64,000 nucleotides of DNA from assembly GCA_041661545.1 (NCBI GenBank), contig JBAZUH010000001.1:467877-531876 (forward strand). The letters run 5' to 3'. This DNA comes from Candidatus Staskawiczbacteria bacterium. Lineage in GTDB: Bacteria > Patescibacteriota > Minisyncoccia > Minisyncoccales > Staskawiczbacteraceae. Under the pieces are notes generated by a model. It was not told the DNA's origin. It ran no database searches and worked only from the letters and a program-made list of their open reading frames with translations. A program made the translations under genes and the position numbers. This document shows, one piece after another, positions 3,367-45,740 of this stretch (position 1 is its first letter; each line of letters opens with the position of its first letter).

Positions 3367-3463
3367 AATTTAAAATTTAATTTTATATAAATAAAAATAT
3401 CATAAAAACTAATATTTTACAAATTGACTTTAGTGTATTTTGGGGTTAGAATAAAAACCACTT

Positions 3464-3548
3464 GGAGGAGTCGCATAGTGGCTATTGCACCGGTCTTGAA
3501 AACCGGAATCCTTCACAGGATTCGTGAGTTCGAGTCTCACCTCCTCCG
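3464..3548 (+). tRNA. tRNA-Ser(UGA)
   Basis: Hand-folded cloverleaf: acceptor GGAGGAG/CTCCTCC, anticodon loop CTTGAAA, long variable arm, T-loop TTCGAGT. Confidence 0.9.
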
Positions 3549-3613
3549 CCTTCGCCTCGCTGAAGCTCGGCTTCGGCGAGACAAAGTCCGCCGAGTTGAA
3601 AAAAATAAAAAAT

Positions 3614-3697
3614 GGAGAGGTCGTATAATGGTTATTACAAGAGATTGCTAATCTCTGCCCCTCACGGGGCCTGTGGGTTCGAGTCCCACCCTCTCCG
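3614..3697 (+). tRNA. tRNA-Ser(GCU)
   Basis: Acceptor GGAGAGG/CCTCTCC, anticodon stem-loop AGAGA-TTGCTAA-TCTCT, long variable arm GCCCCTCACGGGGCC, T-loop TTCGAGT. Confidence 0.9.
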
Positions 3698-3704
3698 CAC
3701 TGAT

Positions 3705-3776
3705 GCGCCCGTAGCTCAACGGATAGAGCGCAGCCCTGCGAAGGCTGAAATACCGGTTCGATTCCTGTCGGGCGCA
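3705..3776 (+). tRNA. tRNA-Arg(GCG)
   Basis: Acceptor GCGCCCG/CGGGCGC, anticodon stem-loop CAGCC-CTGCGAA-GGCTG. The T-stem has one C-T mismatch. Confidence 0.8.
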
Positions 3777-3810
3777 CACTTCGATAGGCTCAGCATAAAC
3801 TTAAAAATTT

Positions 3811-12708: not shown

Positions 12709-12785
12709 AAACAACAATATATTCTTATTATATTATCATATAATAATTTTAAAAAGGAAGCAACAAATTTAAATATACAATTTCT

Positions 12786-16700: not shown

Positions 16701-18911
16701 GTCTGACCCAGAGCCACCAGTTGCTGAATTAGAACCTGTGCCATAGTTGCTTCCCCCAGAAGATAATGAAATACCAGTTACTGTTCCCTGACCTGCTGAT
16801 ATACTAACTTCAAATCCAGAACCACTCCCGCCAGACGTACCAACAAAGCTATTAGAAGAATAATTAGTTCCGCCGTATGATACTGAAAATGATGTTACCT
16901 CACCACTACTGCCCACGCCACTAATGTAAATCGTAGCGTTATAGTCTCCTGAACTAATTGTAACTTCATTGCCCTCAGTATAGCCACTTCCTGCCATATA
17001 GGTACTTGCATCATAAACTACGCCATAAGGTCCATCCACAGATGTTACAGTAACATATCCATCATAATTACCGCCTTGAACAGTCAAAGAATCATTTTCT
17101 TGGAACCCATAACCACCTGAGTTGAGAGAAACGCTTGATATGCTACCTGTTCCTCCAGAAATTTCTGCTACGCTTATACTGCCGTCGCTATTCCCACCTG
17201 GGACTGAAATAACTTGACCTACTGAATAATAGCCATATCCTGCACTATTTAACGAAACACTCACCAATCCACTTGTATAAACAGGGTCTACAATATAGTC
17301 TATGTCAACACTTCCGATAATTTTTAAGTCAAATAAGTCGGTGGGGGTTTGGAGGTTGGTCAATAAAACTTTGTGGGTTTTGGCTTCAGCAATATTTTCA
17401 AACGTTGCAACTAGTGGGCCGTGTGTGACATTTCCGTTTTCATCGGTGTATGCAGGATAAACCTCTATTCTAGCTGGGTTGTTTGGGTCAGTTGCTTTGG
17501 CATGAATTGTATTATCATTTGTATTATCTAAAATGCCATCAAATGTAACTCTTACATATTGATTGTTGGTGATGGTGGTATAGTTGTTGTCTTGGAATCT
17601 TACTGTATCATATATATCAGCTAGTATATTTTGTTGTTCATCTAAGTGGAATGCTTGGGAGATAAAGATAATATTAAATACTTGGGTTGATAAATGAGGA
17701 ACTGTCCATTCAACATAGTCTAGTTTACCATTGTTATCTGTGTCGTAGGCATGAAATGCAACCTGCTGATTGCTTTCATTTTCCCATTGGATTTGTATTC
17801 TATTCTCTTGACCTACTTTAAATATTTCAGGAATCTTGGTTGAGGCTAATACGTCGGTAATTGGAGCTGCTGGGTTTTCTTCTACCGAGGAAACTGTTAC
17901 TTGTTGACCACTGTCAGTTACTTCGGCCACTATTTCGGTAGCTACAGTAGTATATTCTATGGCTACAAATTCTTCTGGAACATTTTCAACCACTGGGGTT
18001 ATTGCTAATTCTTCGGCTGGTGCTTCAATAGGTGTTTCTGTTGATGTTCCAACAGAAGTTTCTGATGATATAGGCTCCTCGGCCTGCACTTCTTCGGCTG
18101 GAACTTGTGCTAACATTTGTTCCGGTATTTCTGGCATTATCAATTCTTGGGTTGTAGCTTCTTCTAAAACTGGGGCTTCTGTTTCTTGCTCACTTGAATT
18201 TTGCTCTAATATAGCCTCAACAATTGGGGTTGTTTCTATTTCTGGTGCAATAGTTGTTGCTTCCAACGATATATCAACATAAGTGGCTTCTGGGGTTTGA
18301 GTAATTTCTTGTGTTTCTGAGTTGTTAGTAACTACTTCTGTGGCATTTTCTATGGCCTCTGACAAATCAGCAGATAAATATTTATAAACATTATTTAAAA
18401 AACCAGATAAAAATTTAAAAGAAGGACTTAACGATGCTGAAAATATTTGATTATTATTATTTGTTGGCAAAATTGCCAATTGTTGCCTTTGTGCTAAAGA
18501 CAATATTTTATTTGGCTTAGATGATAAAATTTGATTGGCTGTATTATTATTAATTGTGCTTACCTTAATATTCTTTGCATTTTGAGGAAGTTTTGCTAAA
18601 TATTTTCCATTTATAACTTCGCTTTTTGCTACTAAAGTAGTATATTTTACTTGCTGGCCTGCTACAACTTGCTCTTGCGGTATGGTAGTTGAACTAGCCA
18701 CCTTGTCTTTGGGTATTTCAGGAAGAAAAACAAAAACACCAGCCACTAAAAATGCAACCAAAGATAATGAAAACGTTGAAAACAGAGTGCGGTTGTGCTG
18801 TTTTTTTTCTTTTTTATACTTATAGGCCTGGACTAACTCATCGGGTATAACTATCTCATCAGAGGATAAATTTATATTAGTATCTATTTTTTTATTTTTT
18901 TCAGAAGTCAT
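13737..18911 (-). CDS. Giant cell-surface protein 2 (paralog of giant gene 1; beta-helix-like ITDISGT repeats, two or three Big_2-like domains, Cys-rich knots)
   Basis: 1724 aa. The N-terminal 560 aa or so are homologous to giant gene 1, including a 326-nt identical block. Repeats of about 20 aa (GTITDISGTxTN), Big_2-like segments and the same type of C-terminal tail. Confidence 0.9.
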   Translation of the reverse strand: MTSEKNKKIDTNINLSSDEIVIPDELVQAYKYKKEKKQHNRTLFSTFSLSLVAFLVAGVFVFLPEIPKDKVASSTTIPQEQVVAGQQVKYTTLVAKSEVINGKYLAKLPQNAKNIKVSTINNNTANQILSSKPNKILSLAQRQQLAILPTNNNNQIFSASLSPSFKFLSGFLNNVYKYLSADLSEAIENATEVVTNNSETQEITQTPEATYVDISLEATTIAPEIETTPIVEAILEQNSSEQETEAPVLEEATTQELIMPEIPEQMLAQVPAEEVQAEEPISSETSVGTSTETPIEAPAEELAITPVVENVPEEFVAIEYTTVATEIVAEVTDSGQQVTVSSVEENPAAPITDVLASTKIPEIFKVGQENRIQIQWENESNQQVAFHAYDTDNNGKLDYVEWTVPHLSTQVFNIIFISQAFHLDEQQNILADIYDTVRFQDNNYTTITNNQYVRVTFDGILDNTNDNTIHAKATDPNNPARIEVYPAYTDENGNVTHGPLVATFENIAEAKTHKVLLTNLQTPTDLFDLKIIGSVDIDYIVDPVYTSGLVSVSLNSAGYGYYSVGQVISVPGGNSDGSISVAEISGGTGSISSVSLNSGGYGFQENDSLTVQGGNYDGYVTVTSVDGPYGVVYDASTYMAGSGYTEGNEVTISSGDYNATIYISGVGSSGEVTSFSVSYGGTNYSSNSFVGTSGGSGSGFEVSISAGQGTVTGISLSSGGSNYGTGSNSATGGSGSDCSINIDSIAGTISSISISAPGTGYSVTSGVSLDMNGLAIDITAVDAEPLYTWVGSYSTDWNDSSNWQDYVVPPEGTSVQIVDSAMNSPVIPSGTSVTILNLTISSSSGYYLINQGTIVDITGTISFTGSASQAILNQGLITNISGTFDNSSGNIGIYNDTSGIITDITGTITNSGAGNIISNYGTITDISGALTISGGGNGIVNNVYAIITDISGTVINSNGGISNYGTITDISGTFTNTSVVGITNNANAVITDISGTFTNNANNYGIYNLGTITNISGAVENTDASGYGIVNNDGATISNISGTVTNSGAGYGVYNSGTITVTNTATINNTSSGVGFVVYDGVVNGAGTITGNITVEAAGTLNLNAGLTIVGTITNNSGTVTPVTSFDCTSINKVLGADNLSNAMCVLPLTTSVGTCGTITSSGTYTLTTDLSVSSGNCIVISASNVTLSGGSSYSINVSGSGRGVYVSGSVTGVTIASITINSSGDTSYGVFNGGTITNISGTINNSDNGSGIYNGGAITDISGTVANTLTGYGIDNHGSIANITGTLTNTGDGWGIDNSGDIYAGNYVVSAINQIVGTIYGGTYTSTVDNYGTIDMTGSAYGPPDFTGATVTDYSGTYLCSEGYTWDTNQCVEIPPAPPAANGEACTVGGDCSSAFCTSNGYCSDMSAGSVCAINDDCDFGLECADGVCAEIAPEDTLVSSITVSGAESATTVVNGSTLQMSVSILPVDATDQTVTWSKTDGTGTATINSSGLLTATGVGAVTVRATANDGSNVYGELEITVTTLNISVTGVTLDDSTASILVDATHQLTSTVAPDNATDSSVTWSSSNTSVATVSDTGLVTAISAGTATITVTTTDGDHTATATITVPTVGGGGGGSYTATSIVPLAIDAIQTTSQSIMIYMGQALDEIRKSIGLLRLNFITPAQPTTGPDNLQPNTLPLNQTPTSTPTSEENRSAVINIYEKIINTLISILGMYIGGESAQ

Positions 18912-21269: not shown

Positions 21270-22442
21270 ATGAAAATCCTATCAATAGAAACATCTTGCG
21301 ACGACACAGGAATTGCCGTTTTAGAAATCTCAAAAAATGGCGATTTTAACATTTTATCAAATATTGTTGCTTCTCAAATAAAAGTTCACCAAAAATATGG
21401 CGGGGTTTATCCTGCAATGGCAAAAAGAGAACACCAAAAAAATTTAATACCAACCTTTATTAAAGCCCTAAGAAAATCTAATTTACTAAAAAATAACGAG
21501 CTAAAACAAAATTTTGATTTTCAAAGTTTAAATAATATTTTAGAACGTGAGCCAGAACTATACAAAAACTTAGTTTCTTTTTTAAAAAAATACACAAAAC
21601 CAAACATAGATTTAATTGCTGTAACTAATGGCCCAGGTTTAGAGCCATGTTTATGGGTTGGAGTTAATTTTGCAAAAGCTATTTCTTTTGCATGGAATAT
21701 TCCCGTTGTGCCAGCAAATCATATTGAAGGTCATATTTTAGTTAACCTTCTAAACCCTAAACCCTACACCCTAAACCCTACTCTATTCCCTGCTATTGCA
21801 TTAGTGGTAAGCGGAGGTCATACGCAAATTATTTTGGTAAAAAAGATTGGCAGCTATAAAATACTTGGCGAAACAAGAGACGATGCAGCCGGAGAATGCT
21901 TTGATAAATGTGCAAAAATTTTAGGATTAGGTTATCCTGGCGGACCAATTATTGCTAAAATGGCAGAAAAAGTCGGTGGGATGTCGGACGTCCCACCGCT
22001 TCCACGCCCAATGATTAATACAAAAGATTACGATTTTAGTTTTTCTGGATTAAAAACTGCAGTTTTATACGCAGATAGAAAAGTTGACCCTTCGACACGG
22101 CTCAGGGCGAGCTATAAACGTAAAATGTCTGCCGAAGTTCAGCAAGCCATAATTGATGTTTTAATTAAAAAAACAATTAAAGCTGTAAAAGATTTTAAAG
22201 TAAAGTCTTTAATTTTAGGAGGAGGAGTTTCAGCTAATCAAGAATTAAAAAAACAATTTCAATTAGAAATTGAAAAAAATAAACTAAAAGTTAAATTAAT
22301 ATATCCAGCGCCTAATTTATCAACAGACAACGGAGCAATGATAGCAGTTGCAGGATTTTATCACCTGCCTGCCGGCAGGCAGGTAAAAAAACTCGCCAAC
22401 TGGAAAAAAATTAATGCCAATGGTAATTTACGAATAGATTAA
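21270..22442 (+). CDS. tsaD: tRNA N6-adenosine threonylcarbamoyltransferase TsaD (Kae1/Gcp)
   Basis: ILSIETSCDDTGIAV, HIEGH, VVSGGHTQI and GGGVSAN. It carries several GC-rich in-frame inserts. Confidence 0.9.
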   Translation: MKILSIETSCDDTGIAVLEISKNGDFNILSNIVASQIKVHQKYGGVYPAMAKREHQKNLIPTFIKALRKSNLLKNNELKQNFDFQSLNNILEREPELYKNLVSFLKKYTKPNIDLIAVTNGPGLEPCLWVGVNFAKAISFAWNIPVVPANHIEGHILVNLLNPKPYTLNPTLFPAIALVVSGGHTQIILVKKIGSYKILGETRDDAAGECFDKCAKILGLGYPGGPIIAKMAEKVGGMSDVPPLPRPMINTKDYDFSFSGLKTAVLYADRKVDPSTRLRASYKRKMSAEVQQAIIDVLIKKTIKAVKDFKVKSLILGGGVSANQELKKQFQLEIEKNKLKVKLIYPAPNLSTDNGAMIAVAGFYHLPAGRQVKKLANWKKINANGNLRID

Positions 22443-25392: not shown

Positions 25393-25422
25393 TTGACAGT
25401 TAAACATATAATATGATATAAT
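25393..25422 (+). promoter_or_regulatory. Extended -10 sigma70-type promoter of GC-rich cassette gene 1
   Basis: TTGACA (25393..25398), an 18-nt spacer, then TGaTATAAT (ending at 25422). It is followed by a leader hairpin TTTCTGACcagtgcGTCAGAAA. Confidence 0.65.
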
Positions 25423-25492: not shown

Positions 25493-27289
25493 ATGCCAAC
25501 GAACCAACCCCAAACCGAAACCATGAAAACCATGATCCAATTGGCGACTTCGATCGCCCTGATGATCATTCTTGGTGCCTGCGGCCCTCGAGGTAGCAGC
25601 ACCAACAACGGCGACGAGAGCGGTGACCCCGCCCTCGCGAGAATCAACAACGACCTCAACAACCTGAGCAGGCGCTCCGAAGCCGCCACCTCAACGGTGG
25701 CCGAGCGGTCAAATGACGAACGGTTTGCGGCTCTCCAGCTGCAGCTGGCCGTCATTTCAAACCAGCTCGCCGTCAGTGGCGTCGCAGTTTCGCCGGTGTC
25801 GGACACCGACGAACTCATCATCGCCTCCTCCGCAACCCCCGCCGAACGCGGCATCGTGTTGGCCGGAACCGGTGATACGGTTCCAGGTGAGAATCGACCA
25901 AGATTAGGCACAGCCGCGGGCGGATTGATTCCGTCCCAGGCCACCCAAATCCCGGTTGCCGCAACAACGCCAACTGCACCAACCCAAACCGCACCGCAGC
26001 CAACCCCAACCGCACCAGCCGCGAGAACGGTGGTCCAAGCATGGACCTACCCAGTTGCACAGGGAGACACATACGAGGGCTTAGCCAAAGCCTTCGGCAT
26101 TCCCGAAGCCGCGCTTCGGCGGGCAAACAACGACGTGGTGCTCGAAGTCGGGCGCGTAATCGTTGTACCGATGCCGTTGGACACTACCGCCACCGCCACC
26201 GCCAACAACACCGAGCTAATTCGCGAAATCCGGGGCGGCAACATCGCCATCCTGGAGGTGCTGGAGGCGCTACGGGCGCAACAACAACAGGCTCAGCAAG
26301 CGCTGGCTCAAACGGAGAGACTGGGTGACCAGTCCTTCCGCGGGGTCTCAGCGGCCGAATACGCCGCCTGCCCAACCTGCCAAGCGGCACGGCAACCGAC
26401 GTATTATGCGCCGGAGCCGTCGTACGCCCAGCCGTATCAGCAACCCTACTGTCAGCCGAGCTACGGCTACCAACGGCCATATTACCAGGACTACGGCAGT
26501 TACGGTGGTGGCTACGGTGGAGGAAACAGCATTAGTATCAACTTGTCGCAGTCGCAACAGCAACAGCAACAGGGGTACTACCCCCAGCCGTGCCCAACGC
26601 CGACACCACAACCCCAACCGTACGATCCCTGCCCACCCGGCTCGCCGAGAAATCGGCAGTTGGGTTGGCAACCAGGTGATGGCCAATGGTGGAATAACGG
26701 CACCGGCAGGAATGCCGGAGCCGTGGCAGCGAGCTTAACCCCATACAGCAGCGGGGACTACCTCGCCGCTGCAAGCAGGTCAAGCTCCTCCAGCCCATCC
26801 GTTTCGGCATTGTCGCCAGGCGGAACGCCTTCACCAACCCGCCTAAATGGGGGCCTCAGAGCTCTCAACAACGGCGGAACTGGTGCGGCACCAACAGCGC
26901 GCGGTGGTGGTTACGACTACCGTGCAGCTTTGGCCAGCAGAACTCCGGCCGCAAGTCGGAGCACCGCAACGGCCAATAAGCCGGCAAGTCGGGTACAAAC
27001 CTACAAGCCGGCGACGAAGCCGTCAACGGCACGCGCGACACCCAGTCGTGCGGCACCCAGTCATGCGACATCGAGTCGGCAGACGATGAGTCGGGCGACA
27101 CCAAGTCGTACAACGATGAGTCGTGCACCCAGTAGGACTCCGAGTCGGCAGACGATGAGGACACCCAGTCGCACTCCGAGTCGGCAAACGATGAGGACCC
27201 CGAGTCGTGCGACAGTCAGTCGGGCACCGAGTCGTGCTCCGACGATGAGTCGGGGATCGTCAAGCGGCGGCATGATGCGCCGCAGGTAA
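25493..27289 (+). CDS. GC-rich LysM-domain lipoprotein with Gln/Tyr/Pro-rich and Ser-Arg repeat regions
   Basis: Lipobox MKTMIQLATSIALMIILGAC (alternative start at 25523). LysM-like segment YPVAQGDTYEGLAKAFGIPEAALRRANNDVVLEVGRVIVVP. C-terminal TPSRQTMRTPSR repeats. The opposite-strand ORFs are GC artefacts. Confidence 0.75.
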   Translation: MPTNQPQTETMKTMIQLATSIALMIILGACGPRGSSTNNGDESGDPALARINNDLNNLSRRSEAATSTVAERSNDERFAALQLQLAVISNQLAVSGVAVSPVSDTDELIIASSATPAERGIVLAGTGDTVPGENRPRLGTAAGGLIPSQATQIPVAATTPTAPTQTAPQPTPTAPAARTVVQAWTYPVAQGDTYEGLAKAFGIPEAALRRANNDVVLEVGRVIVVPMPLDTTATATANNTELIREIRGGNIAILEVLEALRAQQQQAQQALAQTERLGDQSFRGVSAAEYAACPTCQAARQPTYYAPEPSYAQPYQQPYCQPSYGYQRPYYQDYGSYGGGYGGGNSISINLSQSQQQQQQGYYPQPCPTPTPQPQPYDPCPPGSPRNRQLGWQPGDGQWWNNGTGRNAGAVAASLTPYSSGDYLAAASRSSSSSPSVSALSPGGTPSPTRLNGGLRALNNGGTGAAPTARGGGYDYRAALASRTPAASRSTATANKPASRVQTYKPATKPSTARATPSRAAPSHATSSRQTMSRATPSRTTMSRAPSRTPSRQTMRTPSRTPSRQTMRTPSRATVSRAPSRAPTMSRGSSSGGMMRRR

Positions 27290-27513: not shown

Positions 27514-27542
27514 TTGACACGCGTCAAGTTATATGATATAAT
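27514..27542 (+). promoter_or_regulatory. Extended -10 sigma70-type promoter of GC-rich cassette gene 2
   Basis: TTGACA (27514..27519), a 17-nt spacer, then TGaTATAAT (ending at 27542). The -35 element lies in the inverted repeat TTGACacgcGTCAA. Confidence 0.65.
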
Positions 27543-27631: not shown

Positions 27632-28540
27632 ATGGCAAGCAAGAAAAAAACCTCGCCGGCAGGGACGCCGGCAACACCACCGGCGAAACCGGCCCCCCGG
27701 CGACGCCCAGCGTCGTTGGCACCGGCGGCAACATCGCCGCTCGTGGCGACGACAACCCCGACACCCCCGCTACCCGCGGGGACAATCAGGCGGACGCCGA
27801 CACCGGCGCCCTCGGGTGCCACAACCCCAACTCCAACCCCGACGCCGCCAGCGCCCACTCCGGCACCGGCACCCGCAACGTTGACGACGGTGGCAACACC
27901 GGCGACAGCACCGGTACCGCCTGCGCCAACAACCCCAGCAGTAACACCGCCATCGCCGACTCCGGCACCCGCCGTCACCCCGACCCCGCCCGCCGCGGTC
28001 ACACCGCGCAGAGCAGGGAGACGAATGGTCGTCACCCGGGTTGTAGGTTTAGTGTTCGTCGTGCTGTTGATAAAATGGGCCTTCAGGTCCGACGAACCGG
28101 CGGCAACGGCGACAACCACCAACAACGCGGCGTACGTCACGGCGTTGGAAAAAGCCACCGCGCTCCTGAAAAAGCAAGCGGTGGAAATGGACCGCCTAAC
28201 GGCGGAGGTTGAAGCCCTCAAAAAGGGCAACACAACCCCGCCCAAGGGCGGCACCACCGCTGGTACTGGTGGCACCGGTACTACCAACCCCAACCCCCAA
28301 CCCCCAACCCCAGTAAACTATCGTCGGTCGGCACCGACGATAGAATCCGCCCATGTCCGCCAACTCCAGGCGGATATCATGGCCATGAAGGTCAAAGCTG
28401 CCCGGACTGTTCGGGCAGCTGCATGGGGTCCAATGGACCCCGACTCAAGGGCAGCAGCACAAGATCAGGTCAACGCCCTTGAAGTGGAGTTGGCCAATAT
28501 GGAGGCCGTCCTGGCTCACGCCAGGGCAACAGGAATGTGA
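27632..28540 (+). CDS. GC-rich Pro/Thr/Ala-rich single-pass membrane protein with a C-terminal coiled coil
   Basis: Basic N-terminus MASKKK, a long PTPAP-rich region, TM helix MVVTRVVGLVFVVLLIKWAF, and heptad-like ALEKATALLKKQAVEMDRLTAEVEALKK. Confidence 0.7.
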   Translation: MASKKKTSPAGTPATPPAKPAPRRRPASLAPAATSPLVATTTPTPPLPAGTIRRTPTPAPSGATTPTPTPTPPAPTPAPAPATLTTVATPATAPVPPAPTTPAVTPPSPTPAPAVTPTPPAAVTPRRAGRRMVVTRVVGLVFVVLLIKWAFRSDEPAATATTTNNAAYVTALEKATALLKKQAVEMDRLTAEVEALKKGNTTPPKGGTTAGTGGTGTTNPNPQPPTPVNYRRSAPTIESAHVRQLQADIMAMKVKAARTVRAAAWGPMDPDSRAAAQDQVNALEVELANMEAVLAHARATGM

Positions 28541-28563: not shown

Positions 28564-28610
28564 GCGCCCCGAGATCGCCTAGCCAGCGAAATCGAGGGCG
28601 CCCTTTTTTT
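28564..28610 (+). terminator. Intrinsic terminator
   Basis: GCGCCCCGAGAT...ATCGAGGGCGC stem followed by T7. Confidence 0.65.
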
Positions 28611-28672
28611 AAATGAAAATCCCCAAAAATAGCGTTTTTTGACACAAAAAATGCTACCATTTTTGAGGGATA
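28611..28672 (+). repeat. Bulged hairpin repeat R1 (subfamily A)
   Basis: aaatgaaaATCCCCAAAAATAGCGTTTTTTGacaCAAAAAATGCTAccaTTTTTGaGGGAT. Confidence 0.85.
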
Positions 28673-28678
28673 AATAGG

Positions 28679-28741
28679 CATCCTTCCAAATATCGATTTG
28701 CGACACGCAAATTGATACCATTTGGGGGGATAAAATTTTTT
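28679..28741 (+). repeat. Bulged hairpin repeat R2 (subfamily B)
   Basis: CATCCTTCCAAATATCGATTTGCGacaCGCAAATTGATAccaTTTGGGGGGAT. It matches R3 at 51 of 52 positions. Confidence 0.85.
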
Positions 28742-28796: not shown

Positions 28797-29156
28797 TTAT
28801 GTACCTTGTTCTAGGGCACTCTTTACTATGCCTTCTATTACTTTATAACTCCCAGCTGCAATTACTATCAAAACAGTTCCTATAATTGCTGCTATCATTG
28901 CTTGTTTAGCTGTTTTTACTTTTCCTGGATCACCTGCGGCCATTAAATATAAGATTCCTGCGATTACCCATCCTATAACCACAATTGCTCCTCCAAGCGT
29001 TACCATTAATGCTTGTATATTTGTTGCAATTTTGGTAGCTGTATCACCACCATTTGCAGTGTTCTCAAAAGCATTAGGATCTTGACCCAAAACTAATACA
29101 GGAGCTACTAACATTCCAAGCAATAAAATTGAAAATAATATTTTTTTATTCACCAT
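28797..29156 (-). CDS. TrbC/VirB2-like small pilin paralog 1
   Basis: Signal peptide, two TM helices and the conserved motif LMAAGDPGKVKTAKQAMIAAIIG. Confidence 0.6.
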   Translation of the reverse strand: MVNKKILFSILLLGMLVAPVLVLGQDPNAFENTANGGDTATKIATNIQALMVTLGGAIVVIGWVIAGILYLMAAGDPGKVKTAKQAMIAAIIGTVLIVIAAGSYKVIEGIVKSALEQGT

Positions 29157-29215
29157 TATTTTAGCAAACTTATATTATTATAAATTTCGTTTGCTATTTT
29201 TTATTATATAATTTT

Positions 29216-29539
29216 TTATTCTACGTTAATATTAAAAGCATTTCCAACTAGATAAACTGCAGATGAAGCCACTATAATTAATATTGTTCCAATGATTGAT
29301 GCAAATAATGCTTTTTTAGCCAAAGTAAGTTTTGATGGATCGCCCAGGGCTGTTAAAAATAAAATGCCTGTTACAACCCATAAAATAACCACTATGGCCC
29401 CACCAATATAAAGCGCTAACATTACGGCTGCGTCAATCATACTTTGAATTGTTATTCCTTCTCCTTGGGCTAAAACCATTCCCGGCAAAGCTAAGACACT
29501 TAAAATAATTAGAAACAATATTTTTTTATTCATATTCAT
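29216..29539 (-). CDS. TrbC/VirB2-like small pilin paralog 2
   Basis: The start is set at MNMNKKILFLIILS, by analogy with the paralogs. Motif LTALGDPSKLTLAKKALFASIIG. Confidence 0.6.
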   Translation of the reverse strand: MNMNKKILFLIILSVLALPGMVLAQGEGITIQSMIDAAVMLALYIGGAIVVILWVVTGILFLTALGDPSKLTLAKKALFASIIGTILIIVASSAVYLVGNAFNINVE

Positions 29540-29547
29540 ATTTATAA

Positions 29548-29877
29548 TTAATAAGTTGTTAAAACTCCTCCAATTATCCATAATATAGAGTAAGCAACAA
29601 TTCCAACTACCACTCCAGCAATTCCCCAAATTAAAGCAGACTTAGCTATTTTTAATTTTGCGGGGTCACCCATTGCTGTTAAAAAGAAAATGCCCGCAAT
29701 GACAAAACAAACTAATACAATAAATGCAAATATAACCCATATAGCCCATTCTAAAGAATATATAAAATCTTCGATTGTCATTGGCTCTAGGCCGTGAGAT
29801 ATTTGACCTAAAGAAACCAAGGGCATAGCCAAGGCCCCTAAAACTATTAAAAACAATATTTTTTTATTGATATTCAT
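29548..29877 (-). CDS. TrbC/VirB2-like small pilin paralog 3
   Basis: Starts MNINKKILFLIVLG. Motif LTAMGDPAKLKIAKSALIWGIAG. Confidence 0.6.
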   Translation of the reverse strand: MNINKKILFLIVLGALAMPLVSLGQISHGLEPMTIEDFIYSLEWAIWVIFAFIVLVCFVIAGIFFLTAMGDPAKLKIAKSALIWGIAGVVVGIVAYSILWIIGGVLTTY

Positions 29878-29950
29878 ATATTAAAAAATCGGTAGGTTTT
29901 TGCCCCCGCTAAGCGGGGACAAAAACCAAAATTCATACAATAAAAATTGA

Positions 29951-30283
29951 CTACACTCCCAACGCGGCACCTATTATATTCAATATCGAGAAGGCTAAAA
30001 TTCCAACTACCACTCCAGCAATTCCCCAAATTAAAGCAGACCTTGCTGCTTGAACTTTTTCTGGTTGTCCTTGAGCTGTTAAAAATAAAATACCAGCAAC
30101 AATAAACATAATAACTGCAATAGCACCAAACACCATCCACATAAGAATTTCTATCTGCTCTATTAATTTTGGCAAATCCTGTATTGAAGCTTCTCCAGGG
30201 GGATAATTTTTATCAAGAGCAAAAACTACAACTGGTAAAGTTAGTGCGGTGACTAAAATTGAATTTAATGTAAATTTATTCAT
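29951..30283 (-). CDS. TrbC/VirB2-like small pilin paralog 4
   Basis: Motif LTAQGQPEKVQAARSALIWGIAG. A long hairpin (core CCCCGCTAAGCGGGG, about 29893..29925) lies downstream. Confidence 0.6.
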   Translation of the reverse strand: MNKFTLNSILVTALTLPVVVFALDKNYPPGEASIQDLPKLIEQIEILMWMVFGAIAVIMFIVAGILFLTAQGQPEKVQAARSALIWGIAGVVVGILAFSILNIIGAALGV

Positions 30284-30295
30284 TTTTTAGATAAA

Positions 30296-30347
30296 CATCC
30301 TCCCAAATATCGATTTGCGACACGCAAATTGATACCATTTGGGGGGA
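30296..30347 (+). repeat. Bulged hairpin repeat R3 (subfamily B)
   Basis: CATCCTCCCAAATATCGATTTGCGacaCGCAAATTGATAccaTTTGGGGGGA. Its minus strand reads ...TTTGGGAGGATG, 13 nt upstream of the start of pilin paralog 4. Confidence 0.85.
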
Positions 30348-30393
30348 ATATTTCTACTTATTTTTATAATTTGTGTAATCGACCTTTATAAAA

Positions 30394-30945
30394 TTATTGA
30401 GTAATTTCTTTTAGTATAGCAACAATTGTATTGGCTGCCAACCCTACGGCAATACCAATAATAGAATATATTAAAGCTGTTTTAGCAGTTTTTATTTTTT
30501 GCGGATCGCCAGCCGACAAAAGGTAAAGAATTCCAGAAACAATGATCATTATAGCTCCGGCTGCCACCATAACAATTCCAAACTGAGTAGCTATGCTTTC
30601 AATAATCTTTTCAATGGTTTCTCCCTTCACTCCTGTTTCTATTATTTCAACTATTGCTTGAGCAGTAAGACCAACTACTATACCTATTATTGCATAAGTT
30701 AAAGCTGATTTAGCAGTTTTTATTCTCTGTGGGTCACCAGCTGAAATTAAATATAGAAAACCAGCCACTATAATCATTAACCCTCCTAAAACTGTTATAA
30801 ATGCACCCAATTTTCCAGCTATACCTGCAAGAAGATCTGGAAAACTTGTATAACTTGTTGTCGGCTCAATTTGAGCAAAAGTTAAAGGAGCTATACAAAA
30901 TAGGCTGATAAATAGAATTAAACCGAAAGCATAAAGTTTTTTCAT
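30394..30945 (-). CDS. Tandem-fused double TrbC/VirB2-like pilin (two pilin modules in one ORF)
   Basis: The start is set at MKKLYAFGLILFISLF (cat at 30943..30945). The motif occurs twice: LISAGDPQRIKTAKSALTYAIIG and LLSAGDPQKIKTAKTALIYSIIG. Confidence 0.6.
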   Translation of the reverse strand: MKKLYAFGLILFISLFCIAPLTFAQIEPTTSYTSFPDLLAGIAGKLGAFITVLGGLMIIVAGFLYLISAGDPQRIKTAKSALTYAIIGIVVGLTAQAIVEIIETGVKGETIEKIIESIATQFGIVMVAAGAIMIIVSGILYLLSAGDPQKIKTAKTALIYSIIGIAVGLAANTIVAILKEITQ

Positions 30946-31024
30946 ATTATATATATTATACAACTTTACACAAAAAATATGCAATGTTTCTAGCTGTGAA
31001 TAAAACCTAAGCCGGATCGACGGG

Positions 31025-33715
31025 CTAGTCTTTGAGGCATGCCCCCGATGCAACTTTGTCTCCTTCATCTAATCTCATTATTCTAACTCCTTGGGTATCT
31101 CGCCCTAAAAGAGATATAGACTTTATACTTGTTCTTATAACTTGCCCTTGCTGAGAAATAACAATTAAATCTTCCTCTTCTGCTACATCTTCTACAATAG
31201 CCGACATAATAATATGGCCTGTTTTGCTTGTTATTTTTGCTGTTTTAATTCCCGAGCCTCCCCTGCCTTGAGTTTTATATTGCCCAATATCTGTTCTTTT
31301 ACCATAACCATTTTCCATAACAATCAAAAAATATTTCTTTATTTTTTTTCCTTTGTCCGCCGTAGCTTCAGCGGAGGAGGATACAACATCCATTCCAATT
31401 ACTTCATCACCCTTTTTCAAACTAATACCTTTAACCCCGGCAGCTCCTCGGCCCATTGGTCTTATATCTTTTTCTTTAAATCTAATAGAAATTCCATTTT
31501 TAGTTGCTAAAATTAGGTCATCTTCACCAGTTGTTTTAACAACTTTTTTTAACGCATCTCCTTTTTCTAATTTTATAGCAATAATTCCACTTTTTCTAAC
31601 ATTTTCAAATTCTGACAAATCAGTTTTTTTGATTCTGCCATTTTTTGTAATCATTACCAAAAATTTATCTCCGCTTTGTTGCCTGGCTTGCCCCGCCGTA
31701 GCTTTAGCGGAGGAGGGCATTGGAATTAATGACAAAACTTTTTCTTCGTTTGATATTTCTAAAAAGTTTAGCAAACCTCGGCCACGAGCAACTCTATTGC
31801 CTTCTGGTATTTCATAAACTTGTGTTTGAAAAACTTTTCCAGAATCAGTAAAAAACATTAAATTATCATGGGTTGAAGCAGTCAAAAAGTGCTCTACAAT
31901 ATCATCTTGCATTGTTTTCATACCCATTAAACCCTTTCCTCCTCGTTTTTGTAATTTATAAGTAGCTGGATTTATTCTTTTTATGTAACCGCCTGTAGTT
32001 AAAGTTATAATTGTTTCTTCTAGTGGAACCAAATCAACTTCGGTAATTTCTCCCAGTTTCCCTTTAACAACTTTTGTTTTTCTTTTATCACCAAACTTTT
32101 CTCTTATATCTAAAAGCTCTTTTTTGATAATGGCTTTTAATTTTTCTGGACTTTTTAAAATAGCCAATAATTCTTTTATTGCTTCTAAAATTGCTTTTAG
32201 TTCGTCTTCTATTTTTTTTCTTTCTAATCCTGCTAATGTTTGCAACCTCATTTCTAAAATTGCTACTGCTTGCCTTTCGGTTAATTTAAATTTTTTAATT
32301 AAATTAGCTCTTGCTTCTTCTTTATCTGCAGATTTTTTAATTGTTTGAATAACTGCATCAATGTTTTTTAATGCAATCATTAAACCCTCTAATATATGGG
32401 CTCTTTCTTTGGCTTTTTCTAAATCAAATTGTGTTCTGCGAGTAACAACCTCTTCTCTGTGTTTAATAAAATATTTTAAAACATCGGCCAAAGATAAAAT
32501 TTCTGGCTGAATGCCATCTACTAATGCCAACAAATTTAAGTGAAAAGTTTTTTGAAGGCTAGTAAACTTGTATAATCTATTTAAAATTCTTTGTGGCTGA
32601 TAGCTTTTTTTAACATCAATTACAATGCGCATGCCTTCTCTGTCAGATAAATCTCTTATATCTTTTATTCCCTCAACCTTTTTTTCAGAAACCAATTCTG
32701 CCATTTGCTCTACCAAAGTAGATTTTAAAACTTGATAAGGAATTTCTGTAATTATAATTTGTTCTGCTCCATCTTTTTTTTCTACAACATCTGCTTTTCC
32801 ACGCATTAAAATAGCCCCCTTACCCTGAGAATAAGCAGTAATTATTTCTTTTTGGTCATAAATTATACCACCAGTTGGAAAATCAGGGCCCTGCACAAAT
32901 TCAAACAAATCTTCTGTTTCTGCTTTTGGGTGCTCTAGCACATATATAGAGGCATCAACAACTTCGGTTAAATTATGAGGTGGAATATTTGTTGCCATGC
33001 CAACGGCAATGCCCAAAGAACCATTTAAAAGCAATTGTGGCAATGGACTTGGCAAAACAGTTGGCTCGGTTGTCATGCCGTCATAGTTGTCAACAAATTT
33101 TACAGTATCTTTTTCAATATCTTTTAACATTTCGTCTCCTAGCTTTGTTAGCCTACATTCTGTATACCTAGCAGCAGCAGCTCCATCACCATCTATAGAA
33201 CCAAAGTTTCCTTGGCCATCTACCAATGTGTATCGCATATTAAAATCTTGCGCCATACGCACCAAACTTTCATAAACAGCTGTATCACCATGAGGGTGAT
33301 AACTTTTCAAAACCTCTCCAACTACCGCCATAGACTTTCTGTGTTTTGTGTTAGACCTTAAACCAGATTGCATCATTGCATATAAAATTCTTCTGTGAAC
33401 TGGTTTTAAACCATCTCTAACATCGGGCAGAGCACGTGCAACAATAACCGACATTGCATAATCAATGTATGATTCTTTAAGCTCGGTTACCATTTCGCGC
33501 TGAGTCACATTTCCCCTATTACTGTCGCCATGTTTTCCATCTTCTTGAGCTTTAGCCCTCGATTTTTTTTCTTCGCCCTTTTCTTCCTTATCTCCCTTTT
33601 CTTCACTTTTTTCATCCTTCTCCTCGGCTTCCTCGCCCGCCGAAGCCTCGGCGGAGGCTGGGTCTATTTCATCGTCAAGCTCCTCGTTAGATTTTGATTT
33701 TTTTATTTTGGCCAT
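31025..33715 (-). CDS. gyrA: DNA gyrase subunit A
   Basis: YAMSVIVARALPDVRDGLKPVHRRILY and C-terminal beta-pinwheel repeats. There is an acidic N-terminal extension and three in-frame GC-rich hairpin inserts. Confidence 0.95.
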   Translation of the reverse strand: MAKIKKSKSNEELDDEIDPASAEASAGEEAEEKDEKSEEKGDKEEKGEEKKSRAKAQEDGKHGDSNRGNVTQREMVTELKESYIDYAMSVIVARALPDVRDGLKPVHRRILYAMMQSGLRSNTKHRKSMAVVGEVLKSYHPHGDTAVYESLVRMAQDFNMRYTLVDGQGNFGSIDGDGAAAARYTECRLTKLGDEMLKDIEKDTVKFVDNYDGMTTEPTVLPSPLPQLLLNGSLGIAVGMATNIPPHNLTEVVDASIYVLEHPKAETEDLFEFVQGPDFPTGGIIYDQKEIITAYSQGKGAILMRGKADVVEKKDGAEQIIITEIPYQVLKSTLVEQMAELVSEKKVEGIKDIRDLSDREGMRIVIDVKKSYQPQRILNRLYKFTSLQKTFHLNLLALVDGIQPEILSLADVLKYFIKHREEVVTRRTQFDLEKAKERAHILEGLMIALKNIDAVIQTIKKSADKEEARANLIKKFKLTERQAVAILEMRLQTLAGLERKKIEDELKAILEAIKELLAILKSPEKLKAIIKKELLDIREKFGDKRKTKVVKGKLGEITEVDLVPLEETIITLTTGGYIKRINPATYKLQKRGGKGLMGMKTMQDDIVEHFLTASTHDNLMFFTDSGKVFQTQVYEIPEGNRVARGRGLLNFLEISNEEKVLSLIPMPSSAKATAGQARQQSGDKFLVMITKNGRIKKTDLSEFENVRKSGIIAIKLEKGDALKKVVKTTGEDDLILATKNGISIRFKEKDIRPMGRGAAGVKGISLKKGDEVIGMDVVSSSAEATADKGKKIKKYFLIVMENGYGKRTDIGQYKTQGRGGSGIKTAKITSKTGHIIMSAIVEDVAEEEDLIVISQQGQVIRTSIKSISLLGRDTQGVRIMRLDEGDKVASGACLKD

Positions 33716-35252: not shown

Positions 35253-35355
35253 CCCCCAAAATCTTAGTCAATATTTTTTTAAAAAAAGAAGCCCACATAA
35301 AGCAGGCCATTAGAAGAAGCTGATCGGCTATCAGCAATCAAAATCATGTCCGAAT

Positions 35356-35541
35356 TTAATGACCTGGTTGAAGAGAAAGCTCCCTGTCAACCTCGGCTAC
35401 AAGCACATCAATTGCCAAGGCGACGCTTTCATGCCCCATTCCGTGGAAAGTCGTATCTGCTTTTTTCGTCAAGTAATCTCTGACAATCCTCAACTCATCT
35501 TTCTTGCTCAATATTCTTCTTATGGCATTTATGGGATTCAT
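35356..35541 (-). CDS. Hypothetical small protein (61 aa), mid-GC, paralogous N-domain to the next gene
   Basis: KKDELRIVRDYL...LVAEVDREL aligns with KREKLQIVKEWL...ELVDREI of 35581..35964. Confidence 0.45.
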   Translation of the reverse strand: MNPINAIRRILSKKDELRIVRDYLTKKADTTFHGMGHESVALAIDVLVAEVDRELSLQPGH

Positions 35542-35580
35542 GACAGTTTTTTTGTTTTGTGCTTTGGAGGCAGAGCGTTT

Positions 35581-35964
35581 TTAAGGGCTATGTGCGGGCG
35601 CTTGGACGGGTTGCTCGGGCAACAATTCAAATTCGTCTAGTGTAACAGCCCTCGACTCTTCTTTAATGCGGTAAAAATCGCGCCCTATCAAAGTACTAAT
35701 TGTTACTGTTTGTCCCATCAGATGGCAAATACAAGTTCTATTTCCAGAAATATGATGACAAGCTCCGCAATGTATTATCTTTGCCTTTCTACCAACAAAA
35801 TCGCCCTTGTCGACATTCTTGGTTGCTTCTAGCTGTTGAGTAATCTCGCGGTCAACGAGCTCTATTAACAAACCAATTGTTTCCTTATGGCTACAACCCA
35901 ATCTCTGCAACAACAACCACTCCTTAACTATCTGGAGCTTTTCGCGCTTGCTAATTGTGTTCAT
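35581..35964 (-). CDS. Hypothetical protein (127 aa), mid-GC, Cys/His-rich centre
   Basis: HCGACHHISGNRTCICH cluster. No recognised family. Confidence 0.5.
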   Translation of the reverse strand: MNTISKREKLQIVKEWLLLQRLGCSHKETIGLLIELVDREITQQLEATKNVDKGDFVGRKAKIIHCGACHHISGNRTCICHLMGQTVTISTLIGRDFYRIKEESRAVTLDEFELLPEQPVQAPAHSP

Positions 35965-38018: not shown

Positions 38019-38050
38019 GCGGCGATGAAAATTTCACGCTGCTTTTTTTT
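38019..38050 (+). terminator. Intrinsic terminator
   Basis: GCGGCGatgaaaatttcaCGCTGC followed by T8. Confidence 0.6.
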
Positions 38051-38065
38051 AAATGAATATCCCCC
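38051..38065 (+). repeat. Truncated 5' stub of a subfamily A hairpin repeat
   Basis: AAATGAATATCCCCC matches the first 14 nt of R5 and R1, then runs directly into the next promoter. Confidence 0.6.
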
Positions 38066-38075: not shown

Positions 38076-38103
38076 TTGACATCTTTCTATTTTTATGTAT
38101 AAT
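38076..38103 (+). promoter_or_regulatory. Sigma70-type promoter of the GC-rich 503-aa gene
   Basis: TTGACA (38076..38081), a 16-nt spacer, then TATAAT (38098..38103). Confidence 0.65.
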
Positions 38104-38207: not shown

Positions 38208-39716
38208 GTGAAAGCAACCAAAAAAGCCGCGAAACAAGCGGCAGACACCAACGCCGTGCAAGCGGCGCCCGCAGAAGAAACCACCCCCGTGGTGGCCACC
38301 AAGACCAAGCCAGTTGCCAAGGGTGGCGCGAAAGCCCGCCCCAAAACGACTGTGCTCAGCAGTGCCAACTCCAACCCGTTCGCCAACTTGGGTGACGCCT
38401 TGACCGAATTGAGCCTCGGCGTGCCCGACCTCGACTCGCTCGCCGACGTTGACAGCGTTGGGCAAGGCCTCGAGGCCAAGAAGGCCGCCGCCGTCAAAGT
38501 GCGCGAAGGCATCGCCAATGCCCTCAAGTTCCTGCTTGGTCTTTTCCGCCGGCTTGCCGGTTGCGAAGACCGCATCGAGAAGCGGTTCATCCAGGAGGAG
38601 CTCCAAGAGTCGGAAGACAATGCCCGGGGTTACTTGGGCAAAGTGCTCAACCTCAAGGGCGCCCTCCGCACCATCGCCGCCGGCACGTACCTCAAAACCG
38701 TGCTCACCATGGACTACTCCTCGCCCGACGAGGTCGCCATGATGCTCCGGAATTTGGTGGACAATGGGCTCATCGTCTCCAAGGGTGAAGGCCCCTGCGT
38801 GACCATTGGGTATCAGGTGTATCGCCTTGGTGACTTCGGCTTCGACGCCGAGGATGTCAGGGAAATCACCGGCGTGATTGAGCAGTTCTCCCGCGTGGTG
38901 AAAACGAAGGAACGCGAACGGAGGGCGCAACTCCAGAAGGAAATCGCGGGGCAATCCCAGATTTCCCTGCAAGAAGCGCTTGACGGGAAAACCGGCAAAT
39001 GCCTGGTGACTGTTCCGGCCGAATCGTTCATCGACCGCTCCACCAAAAAGCCCGTGTGGCGTGGAGGTGGCGAGGTCCTATTCGACTTTGCCGACAAGCT
39101 CATCAAACCAATCCGCGCCAGCGGGTCGGTGGAACGCTTGGTCGGCGACCTCGCTGACCGTGGTGGGAGAATCACCCGCCACTCGCTTACGTGGGAGAAG
39201 GCCTCCGGACTGAACGGACTGGCGCAGGGCATCCAGCGGAAACTGGATGTCTCATGGAGTGATGCCCAGGATTTGGCCCGCGACTTCCTCACCATTTGGC
39301 ACCTCCTCAACCGTGGCATTCGCCACGCCGAGGAAGTCGTCAAGCAGGCTGACGAGCTGGCCCAACTGACTGCGAAGGCCGAGATCACCGCCGTGCAGTT
39401 CTTCGGGCTCAACGGCACCAAGGACGGCAAGCCCATCGAGGGCAAGCCTGCTCTCCTGCAACTCCAGGGAGTGGTCCGCTTGGAGGACCGCAACCTGTAC
39501 AATCCGTTCTTTCTCGCCAGGAGGATGACGGAAGAAGGCAAGGAGCTCGTCGAGGCGCTGGAAATTCCGGCATACCTCGAGGGATACCTTGAAACCGGGA
39601 AGAAATTCCCAATCGATCGCTGGAACACCCCTGTCGGCGACCTGATTCAAAAGATCAAGGGGCAAACCGAGATGACTGTCGCGACCGCGGCCGCCATCGC
39701 CAACCCGGCCGAGTGA
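38208..39716 (+). CDS. GC-rich protein of unknown function with a Lys/Ala-rich (histone H1-like) N-terminus
   Basis: The long ORF opens at a TTG at 38133. GTG at 38208 is favoured because the CCAAC-rich leader plus AAGGG resembles the leader of 27632. Amino-acid composition is balanced on the + strand. The minus-strand ORFs are GC artefacts. Confidence 0.7.
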   Translation: MKATKKAAKQAADTNAVQAAPAEETTPVVATKTKPVAKGGAKARPKTTVLSSANSNPFANLGDALTELSLGVPDLDSLADVDSVGQGLEAKKAAAVKVREGIANALKFLLGLFRRLAGCEDRIEKRFIQEELQESEDNARGYLGKVLNLKGALRTIAAGTYLKTVLTMDYSSPDEVAMMLRNLVDNGLIVSKGEGPCVTIGYQVYRLGDFGFDAEDVREITGVIEQFSRVVKTKERERRAQLQKEIAGQSQISLQEALDGKTGKCLVTVPAESFIDRSTKKPVWRGGGEVLFDFADKLIKPIRASGSVERLVGDLADRGGRITRHSLTWEKASGLNGLAQGIQRKLDVSWSDAQDLARDFLTIWHLLNRGIRHAEEVVKQADELAQLTAKAEITAVQFFGLNGTKDGKPIEGKPALLQLQGVVRLEDRNLYNPFFLARRMTEEGKELVEALEIPAYLEGYLETGKKFPIDRWNTPVGDLIQKIKGQTEMTVATAAAIANPAE

Positions 39717-39763: not shown

Positions 39764-39807
39764 GGGGATGTGCGCGTAGCAATACGCGTGCATCCCCCCT
39801 TTTTTTG
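39764..39807 (+). terminator. Strong intrinsic terminator
   Basis: GGGGATGTGCGCGTAgcaaTACGCGTGCATCCCCcc followed by T7. Confidence 0.85.
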
Positions 39808-39813
39808 CACAGG

Positions 39814-39866
39814 CATCCTCCCAAATAGCATTTTTTGACACAAAAAATGTTACCATTTGGGGGGAT
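39814..39866 (+). repeat. Bulged hairpin repeat R4 (subfamily B)
   Basis: CATCCTCCCAAATAGCATTTTTTGacaCAAAAAATGTTAccaTTTGGGGGGAT. Confidence 0.85.
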
Positions 39867-39952
39867 TTTTCATTTATAGAAGACTTTCGTATAATATTTG
39901 AATAAATTTAAAAATTATGATAAACTATATTTATTAATACAGAAAAAAATAT

Positions 39953-45652: not shown

Positions 45653-45679
45653 TCCAGGCACATTGTCTGGATTTTTTTT
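45653..45679 (+). terminator. Intrinsic terminator
   Basis: TCCAGgcacattgtCTGGA followed by T8. Confidence 0.75.
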
Positions 45680-45740
45680 AAATGAATATCCCCAAAAATA
45701 GCGCTTTTCGTCACGAAAAGTGCTACCATTTTTGAGGGAT
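45680..45740 (+). repeat. Bulged hairpin repeat R5 (subfamily A)
   Basis: aaatgaatATCCCCAAAAATAGCGCTTTTCGtcaCGAAAAGTGCTAccaTTTTTGaGGGAT. Confidence 0.85.

Follow-up and report, generated by a model that had tools for sequence, protein, structure and literature searches.

Bulged hairpin repeats of Candidatus Staskawiczbacteria as probable strand-specific, nonautonomous elements resembling REPs or IS200/IS605 in behavior

Repetitive extragenic palindromes (REPs), bacterial interspersed mosaic elements (BIMEs), and REPINs are short, imperfect, intergenic palindromes that are clustered, lineage specific, and form a hairpin on one strand (PMC3116915, PMC3337134, PMC5581495). The cognate gene of a REP-associated tyrosine transposase (RAYT) is flanked by copies of the same REP (PMC3116915, PMC5581495). 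Elements of the IS200/IS605 family insert in a fixed orientation directly 3' of a short target, and their enzyme reads an imperfect, bulged hairpin of the top strand alone; they have no usual terminal inverted repeats and no clear target duplication (PMC3201880, PMC5027513). For class C (IIC) group II introns, insertion in a fixed orientation after intrinsic terminator motifs has been described (PMC4424553), and the integrase of integrons cuts attC sites at the foot of their stem, in 7-bp cores (R', GTTRRRY; R'', RYYYAAC) (PMC8876359). Here, we analyze a family of bulged hairpin repeats in a 64-kb stretch of Candidatus Staskawiczbacteria DNA (contig JBAZUH010000001.1; hereafter the window), which is AT-rich chromosomal DNA with approximately 32 to 35% GC. 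Patescibacteria, the candidate-phyla group, have tiny genomes, and to our knowledge no repeat family of such a kind has been described in them.

The hairpins are probably, though by a modest degree of confidence, lineage-specific, strand-specific, nonautonomous elements of Candidatus Staskawiczbacteria that behave like REP or IS200/IS605 elements. Units come and go at otherwise conserved intergenic sites, form head-to-tail arrays, are homogenized within a genome, and decay to stubs. Their structure is constrained, their two strands are asymmetric, and they follow T-runs in one orientation only. The gain, loss, amplification, and homogenization show that an active process acts on DNA hairpins in these genomes.

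All five window copies are short, imperfect, repeated palindromes in intergenic DNA. As with REPs, BIMEs, and REPINs, the palindromes are often found just downstream of genes or between convergent ones and are homogeneous within a genome, and a RAYT-like Y1 gene exists in the clade. Unlike REPs and REPINs, the hairpins have no conserved GTAG head, and the units are linked to 5' T-runs; the arrays are direct repeats with a 61-nt period, whereas REPINs and BIMEs are inverted pairs. The likeness to IS200/IS605 lies in the single orientation directly 3' of a specific short target, here a T-run in 20 of 26 independent copies. However, IS200/IS605 elements have two distinct subterminal hairpins, at the left and right ends, with cleavage tetranucleotides there, whereas a single hairpin and a homopolymer target are found here. 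Class C group II introns similarly choose terminator motifs as insertion sites, but the present unit is only about 60 nt long, has no ribozyme domains or reverse transcriptase, and also occurs at T-runs that belong to no terminator.

A conserved bulged hairpin and its folding strand

One unit consists of an 8-nt linker and a 52- to 53-nt bulged hairpin, behind which a short tail, (A/T)TTCNNTTA, often lies. In the window, each copy forms a stem of 23 bp that is closed by a 3-nt loop and has 3 nt bulging from its 3' arm, with energies of -22 to -28 kcal/mol and z scores of -6 to -7.5. The arms of all copies read ATCC(Y/G)(Y/G)(M)AAAT ... ATTT(K)(K)G(R)GGAT, and the linkers are AAATGAAA, GCATAGGC, or AGATAAAC. 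A preliminary description of the window, made from its letters, had reported an unpaired CCA on the 3' arm; this is an acceptable reading of a bulge whose register is ambiguous, as ACC or CCA. It had also distinguished two subfamilies, A and B. Both exist, and a third outer-stem type (ATACTGTT.../...AGCAGTAT) occurs in related DNA.

The five full copies and one stub of that description are located correctly within a few bases, and all lie on the plus strand, as it had stated. R1, an A-type unit (28611..28671, +), directly follows the T7 run at 28604..28610 (+), which from the sequence is the terminator tail of a 302-aa GC-rich gene. It has the linker AAATGAAA (28611-28618) and a 53-nt hairpin (28619-28671) with the outer stem ATCCCCAAAAAT/ATTTTTGAGGGAT and the inner stem TTTTTTG/CAAAAAA. 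In tandem with it, with a 61-nt period, lies R2, a B-type unit (28672..28731, +) with the linker AAATAGGC and a 52-nt hairpin (28680-28731). R3 is B-type (30283..30348, +) and comprises CAT plus a T run, the linker AGATAAAC (30289-30296), and the hairpin (30297-30348); a minus-strand pilin-like gene (29951-30283) starts at this CAT, and the unit separates two minus-strand T4SS-pilin genes. These genes belong to a cluster of small paralogous open reading frames (ORFs) at 28797-31068 (-), including a 224-aa gene of the T4SS_pilin family at 30394-31068; the relatives' syntenic genes beside gyrA are of the T4SS_pilin family as well.

What is left in the stub (whole feature, 38043..38065, +) is the 5' end of a truncated A-type unit, AAATGAAT-ATCCCCC at 38051-38065, after the T8 terminator tail of the NYN gene (38043-38050), and the promoter of the next gene begins 10 nt downstream. 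R4, a B-type unit (39800..39876, +), has a T7 tail (39800-39806), the linker GCACAGGC (39807-39814), the hairpin (39815-39866), and the 3' flank TTTTCATTTA; the terminator of the GC-rich gene X precedes it, and the conserved promoter region of ftsH follows. R5, A-type (45672..45740, +), has a T8 tail (45672-45679), the linker AAATGAAT (45680-45687), and the hairpin (45688-45740), and lies between a convergent 81-aa gene and infB. The pattern ATCCNNNNAAATANCN{14,24}TGNTACCATTT gives five matches in the window, all on the plus strand (28619, 28680, 30297, 39815, and 45688), and none in 100 shuffles. The A-type left flank TAAATGAAWATCCCC is found exactly at 28610, 38050, and 45679, that is, at R1, the stub, and R5. 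No further copy was found in the window by the covariance model, and half-site searches returned the known copies alone. A possible remnant, GCACAGG, behind a minus-strand terminator at about 19.5 kb was not significant and was rejected.

Further copies came from loci fetched from relatives, with syntenic loci reached via GyrA homologues; the labels L080, L081, L098, L105 to L113, and L130 denote these loci or contigs, and L109 and L130 are related genomes that carry hairpins. In a scan of 185,579 species genomes and a metagenome collection, true relatives of the family were found only in Staskawiczbacteria-like DNA, as seven loci in two metagenome-assembled genomes (MAGs) and eleven metagenome contigs; the remaining matches were due to chance or coding sequence. 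From the GyrA-homologue loci, L109 contributed five complete units, an inner-deleted one, and fragments, and L130 contributed one copy. In total, three related genomes and 11 metagenome contigs carry members of the family in addition to the window. In viral contigs, 16 matches to a relaxed pattern were obtained, none of which forms the hairpin. With Rfam 15 at the gathering score, the window yields tRNAs only and no family for the hairpin, and at E values up to 10 only generic hairpin matches far below the cutoffs appear. A full-text literature search gave no relevant account of repeat or hairpin elements in Patescibacteria or the Candidate Phyla Radiation. The family, being absent from Rfam and from the literature searched, is previously undescribed.

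The hairpin is conserved as a structure. The covariation of the stem in the preliminary description is real and strengthens as copies are added. In an alignment of 24 copies, 93.8% of the cells are paired, and the covariation score is 0.395 compared with 0.171 in shuffles, with none of 500 shuffles reaching 0.395; as a control, slid partner columns give only 38 to 51% pairing. With 29 distinct copies, 94.9% of the cells are paired and 13 of the 23 pairs have changed on both sides, although this pairing is favored because the alignment was fitted to the model. For the inner helix, the same 29 copies show 98.1% pairing, with both-sided changes in 8 of 11 pairs. Sequence itself is conserved in the outer stem and around the bulge (AAATAGC / GCTACCATTT), while the 7-bp inner stem varies with pairing maintained. 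ACC also occurs in the L109 copies, which were found by the model alone; L130 has AGT.

The two strands do not fold equally well. The top strand is more stable in 24 of the 28 distinct copies (mean, -24.5 versus -20.9 kcal/mol) and, with DNA folding parameters, in all six pairs tested. The other strand folds worse because the G.U/G.T wobbles of the top strand turn into C.A mismatches there. R2 is an example: its stem contains three G.U/G.T wobbles, which are pairs on the plus strand only, and reaches -26.3 kcal/mol on the top strand versus -17.7 kcal/mol on the bottom strand.

Several known structures and signals were considered for the hairpin and rejected. A K-turn would have G.A pairs beside the bulge, and there are none. 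A tRNA-like minihelix with an ACCA end is discounted by the ambiguous bulge register, the AGT of L130, and the antisense position of the copies next to start codons relative to their neighbors. No promoter was recognized within the element, as direct reading of both orientations revealed no paired boxes of the sigma-70 type: R1 and R4 carry TTGACA in their inner stems without a -10 box to go with it, and TTGCCA on the opposite-strand arm would put the -10 box on the start codon.

Placement behind T-runs and turnover between genomes

A T-run of at least 5 nt stands just before the 8-nt linker in 20 of the 26 independent copies, against a background of 3.4% (binomial tail, approximately 1e-24), and an A-run stands there in none. 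Two kinds of sites are used. At the first, a same-strand gene is followed by a strong intrinsic terminator, and the unit comes after the T7-8 tail of the latter. The earlier statement that R1, R4, R5, and the stub directly follow a terminator T-run was confirmed, and copies in L080, L081, L098, L109, and L130 do the same. At the second kind of site, the unit is preceded by CAT, the start codon of an opposite-strand gene, and by 5 to 7 further nt, most of them T. These genes are unrelated (rplO, mreB, lemA, a ferredoxin gene, and a pilin gene), and in 7 of the 14 start-codon copies, the stop codon of the preceding gene lies 0 to 18 nt from the other end of the unit.

A T-run target accounts for both sites, as either a terminator tail or the complement of an A-rich leader before an opposite-strand start. 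A role in a single transcript does not fit both kinds of sites, whereas a strand-specific rule at the level of DNA does. The strict placement behind T-runs provides a rule for targets that can be tested. The preliminary description's association with GC-rich or mid-GC genes applies inside the window but not as a general rule. Outside the window, most copies stand before AT-rich housekeeping genes of the opposite strand, such as rplO, mreB, lemA, and a ferredoxin gene, and most of those in a related MAG likewise adjoin opposite-strand housekeeping genes. GC skew in the window tracks gene strand except in the GC-rich genes, and the direction of replication is not readable from it.

Start codons in the window are without a Shine-Dalgarno sequence, and several have TATAAT-like boxes 6 to 10 nt before the ATG, for example at 1058-2182 (-), 5381, 21270, and 47793-48806 (-). 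Because of these two features, leaderless mRNAs are suggested to be common.

The units are gained and lost without the genes around them. At the R5 site, L105 aligns on both flanks with a 58-nt gap exactly at the unit, and no gene is attached. The spacer between the NYN gene and gene X carries the A-type stub in the window, a full copy in L130, and in L109 a full copy followed by ATTA-T8-AAACG, a second, shorter, and different stub; T8 stands on both sides of the copy. In L106, L107, L110, and L111, the same spacer is empty and consists of the terminator, the T-run, about 10 nt, and CTTGACA; L105 has no family copy there but a longer spacer with an unrelated hairpin. The spacer between gene X and ftsH contains the full copy R4 in the window and, in L109, a copy whose inner part is deleted and of which only the outer stem is left. 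No family copy is present at this place in L105, L106, L107, L110, and L111, and in L130 this spacer measures 604 nt. Filled sites begin directly behind the terminator T-run. The preliminary description had explained the stub as a cut left by recombination within the site; decay fits better, given the full copy and shorter stub of L109 and the full copy of L130 at the same site.

The orthologous copies between the NYN gene and gene X differ in their outer stems, which are CCTCCC/GGGGAG in L109 and CCTGGC/GTCAGG in L130. The outer-stem type of each is that of the remaining copies in the same genome, which points to concerted evolution or to a hot spot where units were replaced repeatedly. Head-to-tail arrays with a 61-nt period were found as A-B-C-A-B-C-A in L081, as A-B-A with half-units in L109, and as R1-R2 in the window, and none of these arrays contains an ORF. 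Arrays and half-units show local amplification and breakage. In L081, the seven-unit array is adjoined by another palindrome, AGTAGCTTTTTTGGCTCGAGCCAAAAAAGCTACT (reverse complement at about 1443-1476), and by a near-identical copy of it at about 2040-2075; the first lies just upstream and the second just downstream of a gene that by eye resembles the PaaX/Cas2-like fold family.

Proposed mobilization and alternative explanations

On the favored explanation, the element would be recognized and moved as a single-stranded hairpin of top-strand DNA, and a trans-acting enzyme encoded elsewhere would do the moving. Insertion would occur 3' of a T-run in a fixed orientation, as HUH Y1 enzymes handle IS200/IS605 elements and REPs. 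More speculatively, T-runs made single stranded by RNA polymerase could be the preferred targets; they would be exposed where transcription of very strongly promoted genes terminates and where leaderless genes form open complexes. Such exposure would explain why the window copies cluster behind GC-rich genes with perfect consensus promoters. A benefit to the host is possible, for example through REP-like effects on supercoiling, on mRNA ends, or on antisense termination. The element should be usable as a marker of strain variation in Staskawiczbacteria, and genes that co-occur with it provide a handle for the enzyme search.

A Pfam scan of 43 window ORFs found no integrase, transposase, or recombinase domain, and tblastn with a relative's Y1 protein gave no match, so that the earlier report of neither an integrase nor a Y1 transposase (TnpA) in the window holds as tested. 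Among the ORFs scanned were 42 of the 51 with a length of at least 150 aa and three smaller ones; the ORFs outside it are mostly overlapping frames inside GC-rich genes, plus two giant repeat ORFs. In some relatives, a conserved single-copy Y1 gene lies between the S1 gene and a lactamase-fold gene (L108, 34-759; L111, 10001-10735; L112, 1469-2200). It scores above the Pfam gathering threshold for Y1_Tnp, and its best NCBIfam match is the REP-associated tyrosine transposase, below the cutoff of that family. Its protein has more than 1,000 homologues, the best 120 of which are 62 to 100% identical. The gene is missing at the syntenic site in the window, L109, and L130.

Several points weigh against the favored explanation. 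No mobilizing enzyme was identified among the 43 ORFs scanned, and the window's source contig is not among the contigs of the best 120 Y1 homologues listed. On the flanks of the RAYT-like Y1 gene, L112 and L113 have a separate GC-rich palindrome, GTCGGTGGGGTGTCSGACATCCCACCGAC, instead of the family hairpin, in contrast to a RAYT gene and its REP, and the covariance model detects no family hairpin in the 39.5 kb around three Y1 genes. The comparisons of empty and filled sites span genomes that differ by about 10% in GyrA protein; at this divergence, exact ends and a target duplication are unreadable, and deletion is possible at single sites. Most copies were found with a pattern that fixes TG.TACCATTT, which inflates the conservation of that segment. 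Finally, in 11 of the 14 start-codon copies, the ATG lies 5 to 7 nt from the linker, which is tighter than the bare T-run rule predicts and gives a hint that an expression signal of the opposite strand is selected for or supplied.

The likeness to REPs and IS200/IS605 noted in the preliminary description is kept in part. A one-strand hairpin was a reasonable kind of object to suggest. The link to RAYT was rejected as far as it is testable. Since the palindrome at the Y1 gene differs and the hairpin genomes are without Y1 at that site, REP/RAYT serves as a functional analogy and not as a demonstrated membership. The 23-nt core of GTCGGTGGGGTGTCSGACATCCCACCGAC also has a one-mismatch copy in the window's tsaD gene (21975-21997) and an exact copy in tsaD of L112. 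In the window, the spacer where relatives carry Y1 contains a mid-GC patch (35290-35964) with a 127-aa minus-strand ORF (35581-35964), for which no Pfam or PHROG match was obtained and where tblastn with the Y1 protein finds nothing.

It is improbable, but worth weighing, that the hairpin is a functional plus-strand RNA element, that is, a second terminator, a 3'-end stabilizer, or a protein-binding hairpin, and that it spread by usefulness and not by mobility. The strong covariation of the stem would be expected of such an RNA, and the G.U wobbles favor the plus strand. REP elements are known stabilizers of upstream mRNA. B-type copies are often followed by the U-rich GGAU-UUUUCAUUUAU or AUUCUUUUAUUUUU and could terminate plus-strand transcripts, and in some of them, a stable stem with a U-rich tail resembles an intrinsic terminator. 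However, a 23-bp stem with a conserved bulge and a conserved sequence repeated at unrelated loci differs from an intrinsic terminator, and so does a T-run that is 5' instead of 3'. The A-type copies have no U-tail and stand behind a separate canonical terminator. Copies at after-terminator sites would rarely be transcribed, as they sit behind GC-rich stems of 9 to 15 bp with 7 to 8 T, and the start-codon copies are antisense to both neighbors, so that a plus-strand RNA would need an unexplained promoter inside a coding region. Moreover, the orthologous genes of most relatives manage without the hairpin, and no Rfam family matches it.

A similarly small probability is given to the hairpins being the footprint of a so far unknown kind of DNA movement in candidate-phyla bacteria. 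A single bulged top-strand hairpin with its 8-nt linker would be inserted in a strand-specific manner at T-runs exposed by RNA polymerase, by an enzyme not recognizable as a Y1, DDE, or integrase protein, and the opposite-strand end, GCCTATGC-AAAAAT, would be a ready-made leader for the gene before which the element inserts.

We consider it quite unlikely that the opposite strand is the one that works, with the reverse complement plus GCCTATGC-AAAAAT forming a portable leader before starts and the ATG right behind GCCTATGCAAAAAT. Such a leader might be a promoter for leaderless mRNAs, a ribosome loading site, or an intercistronic processing site, and the after-terminator copies would be by-products. 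The start-codon spacing given above speaks for it; six of these copies share the identical string CATATTTTTGCATAGG, and the element fills the whole spacer in the seven copies with a nearby upstream stop codon. The missing Shine-Dalgarno sites and the position of the -10 boxes likewise suit leaderless mRNAs, and AAAAAT-ATG, which is not how genes in the window usually start, may be supplied by the element. Against this, the candidate boxes TATGCA, TATCTA, and TATATA are without the conserved final T of a -10 box, and direct reading shows no -35 box at 16 to 18 nt. One copy stands before rplO, at a place within the ribosomal protein operon that has no need of a promoter, and the opposite strand is the less stable one in the 24 copies counted above. 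In addition, no opposite-strand gene start adjoins four of the five window copies or any of the copies in L080, L081, and L098.

A classical double-strand miniature inverted-repeat transposable element is very unlikely. The arms would be terminal inverted repeats for a DDE transposase and the T-run a duplicated target site, which suits the sequence conservation of the outer arms, the T8 on both sides of the L109 copy between the NYN gene and gene X, and the many copies with a second T-run 0 to 13 nt behind the hairpin. Double-strand cut-and-paste would, however, insert in both directions, whereas the orientation is fixed (of 26 copies, 20 have a 5' T-run and none a 5' A-run). Inner stem pairing is kept through two-sided changes that a DDE element does not need, strand stability differs in a consistent direction, and the scan of 43 ORFs gave no DDE transposase.

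It is highly improbable that the hairpins are attC-type sites at the 3' ends of mobile GC-rich cassettes, moved by a single-strand-specific recombinase of an integron-like system, and this cassette reading of the preliminary description is already largely refuted. The resemblance is one of layout: one strand of the hairpin folds better, the outer stem is conserved, one arm has unpaired bases, the inner stem varies but stays paired, and the sequence types are genome specific. In the window, L098, and L109, copies also lie behind GC-rich or mid-GC genes with their own promoter and terminator, and the pair of the LysM gene and the 302-aa gene is missing from some relatives. However, gene X (38208-39716) is conserved and resident: eight genomes, the window included, have it between the NYN gene and ftsH, and five of these have no family hairpin at either flank. 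It is 40 to 55% identical to three of its homologues. A gene that persists in eight genomes with hairpins in only three is the opposite of what a cassette would show. Hairpins turn over independently of genes, as at the R5 site with its 58-nt gap in L105 and in the gene-free arrays, and they also stand before housekeeping genes, as do most copies of the related MAG. By direct reading, the cores GTTRRRY and RYYYAAC occur in no copy, at neither foot, and on neither strand. An attC site would be expected in an array beside an intI integrase gene with attI and Pc or, where an integrase is missing, in a cluster of sites between promoterless cassettes. No integrase was found among the ORFs scanned, and the supposed cassettes are syntenic resident genes with perfect promoters of their own, which is atypical for integron cassettes. 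A tempting integron-like reading for these bacteria is thereby removed.

GC-rich genes and other features of the window

Apart from the hairpins, the window contains housekeeping genes (gyrA, ftsH, infB, tsaD, recG, the S1 protein gene, and an aminoacyl-tRNA synthetase gene) and 19 tRNA genes. Within 24-44 kb, TTGACA-N16-18-TATAAT has only three 12/12 matches (25393-25422, 27514-27542, and 38076-38103), and these are the promoters of the three GC-rich genes. All three genes have C-rich coding strands. The LysM-domain gene and the 302-aa Pro/Thr/Ala-rich gene (25493-27289 and 27632-28540) have 62 to 65% GC and occur only in a subclade. Gene X has a GC content at third codon positions (GC3) of 0.67 to 0.77 in seven syntenic genomes, and its neighbors ftsH, gyrA, S1, and infB have 0.16 to 0.32. 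For gene X, no Pfam or PHROG match was found, and its AlphaFold model (predicted local distance difference test score, 69) has no PDB fold match at an E value of <0.1. It is a separate puzzle that a few resident genes hold about 70% GC3 and perfect promoters where the genomes run at about 20%, and that such an inverted codon composition persists in a resident gene across this divergence.

In L130, ftsH is called as two overlapping pieces (2212-4310), with a small GIY-YIG gene just upstream, between gene X and ftsH, and L105 has two small GIY-YIG genes nearby. The split ftsH and the GIY-YIG genes suggest homing-endonuclease activity or assembly frameshifts.

Other repeats were also observed in the window. 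Two giant paralogous ORFs, at 7939-12717 (-) and 13737-18911 (-), encode 1,592 and 1,724 aa; they share long stretches of 72 to 82% identity, about 6.1 to 6.2 kb apart, and contain many internal repeats with a period of 66 to 72 nt. An exact 119-nt direct repeat is found at 63588-63706 and 63882-64000, with a spacing of 294 nt and with the second copy cut by the end of the window. It lies within or at the end of a 606-aa minus-strand ORF (62087-63907) that has no Pfam match.

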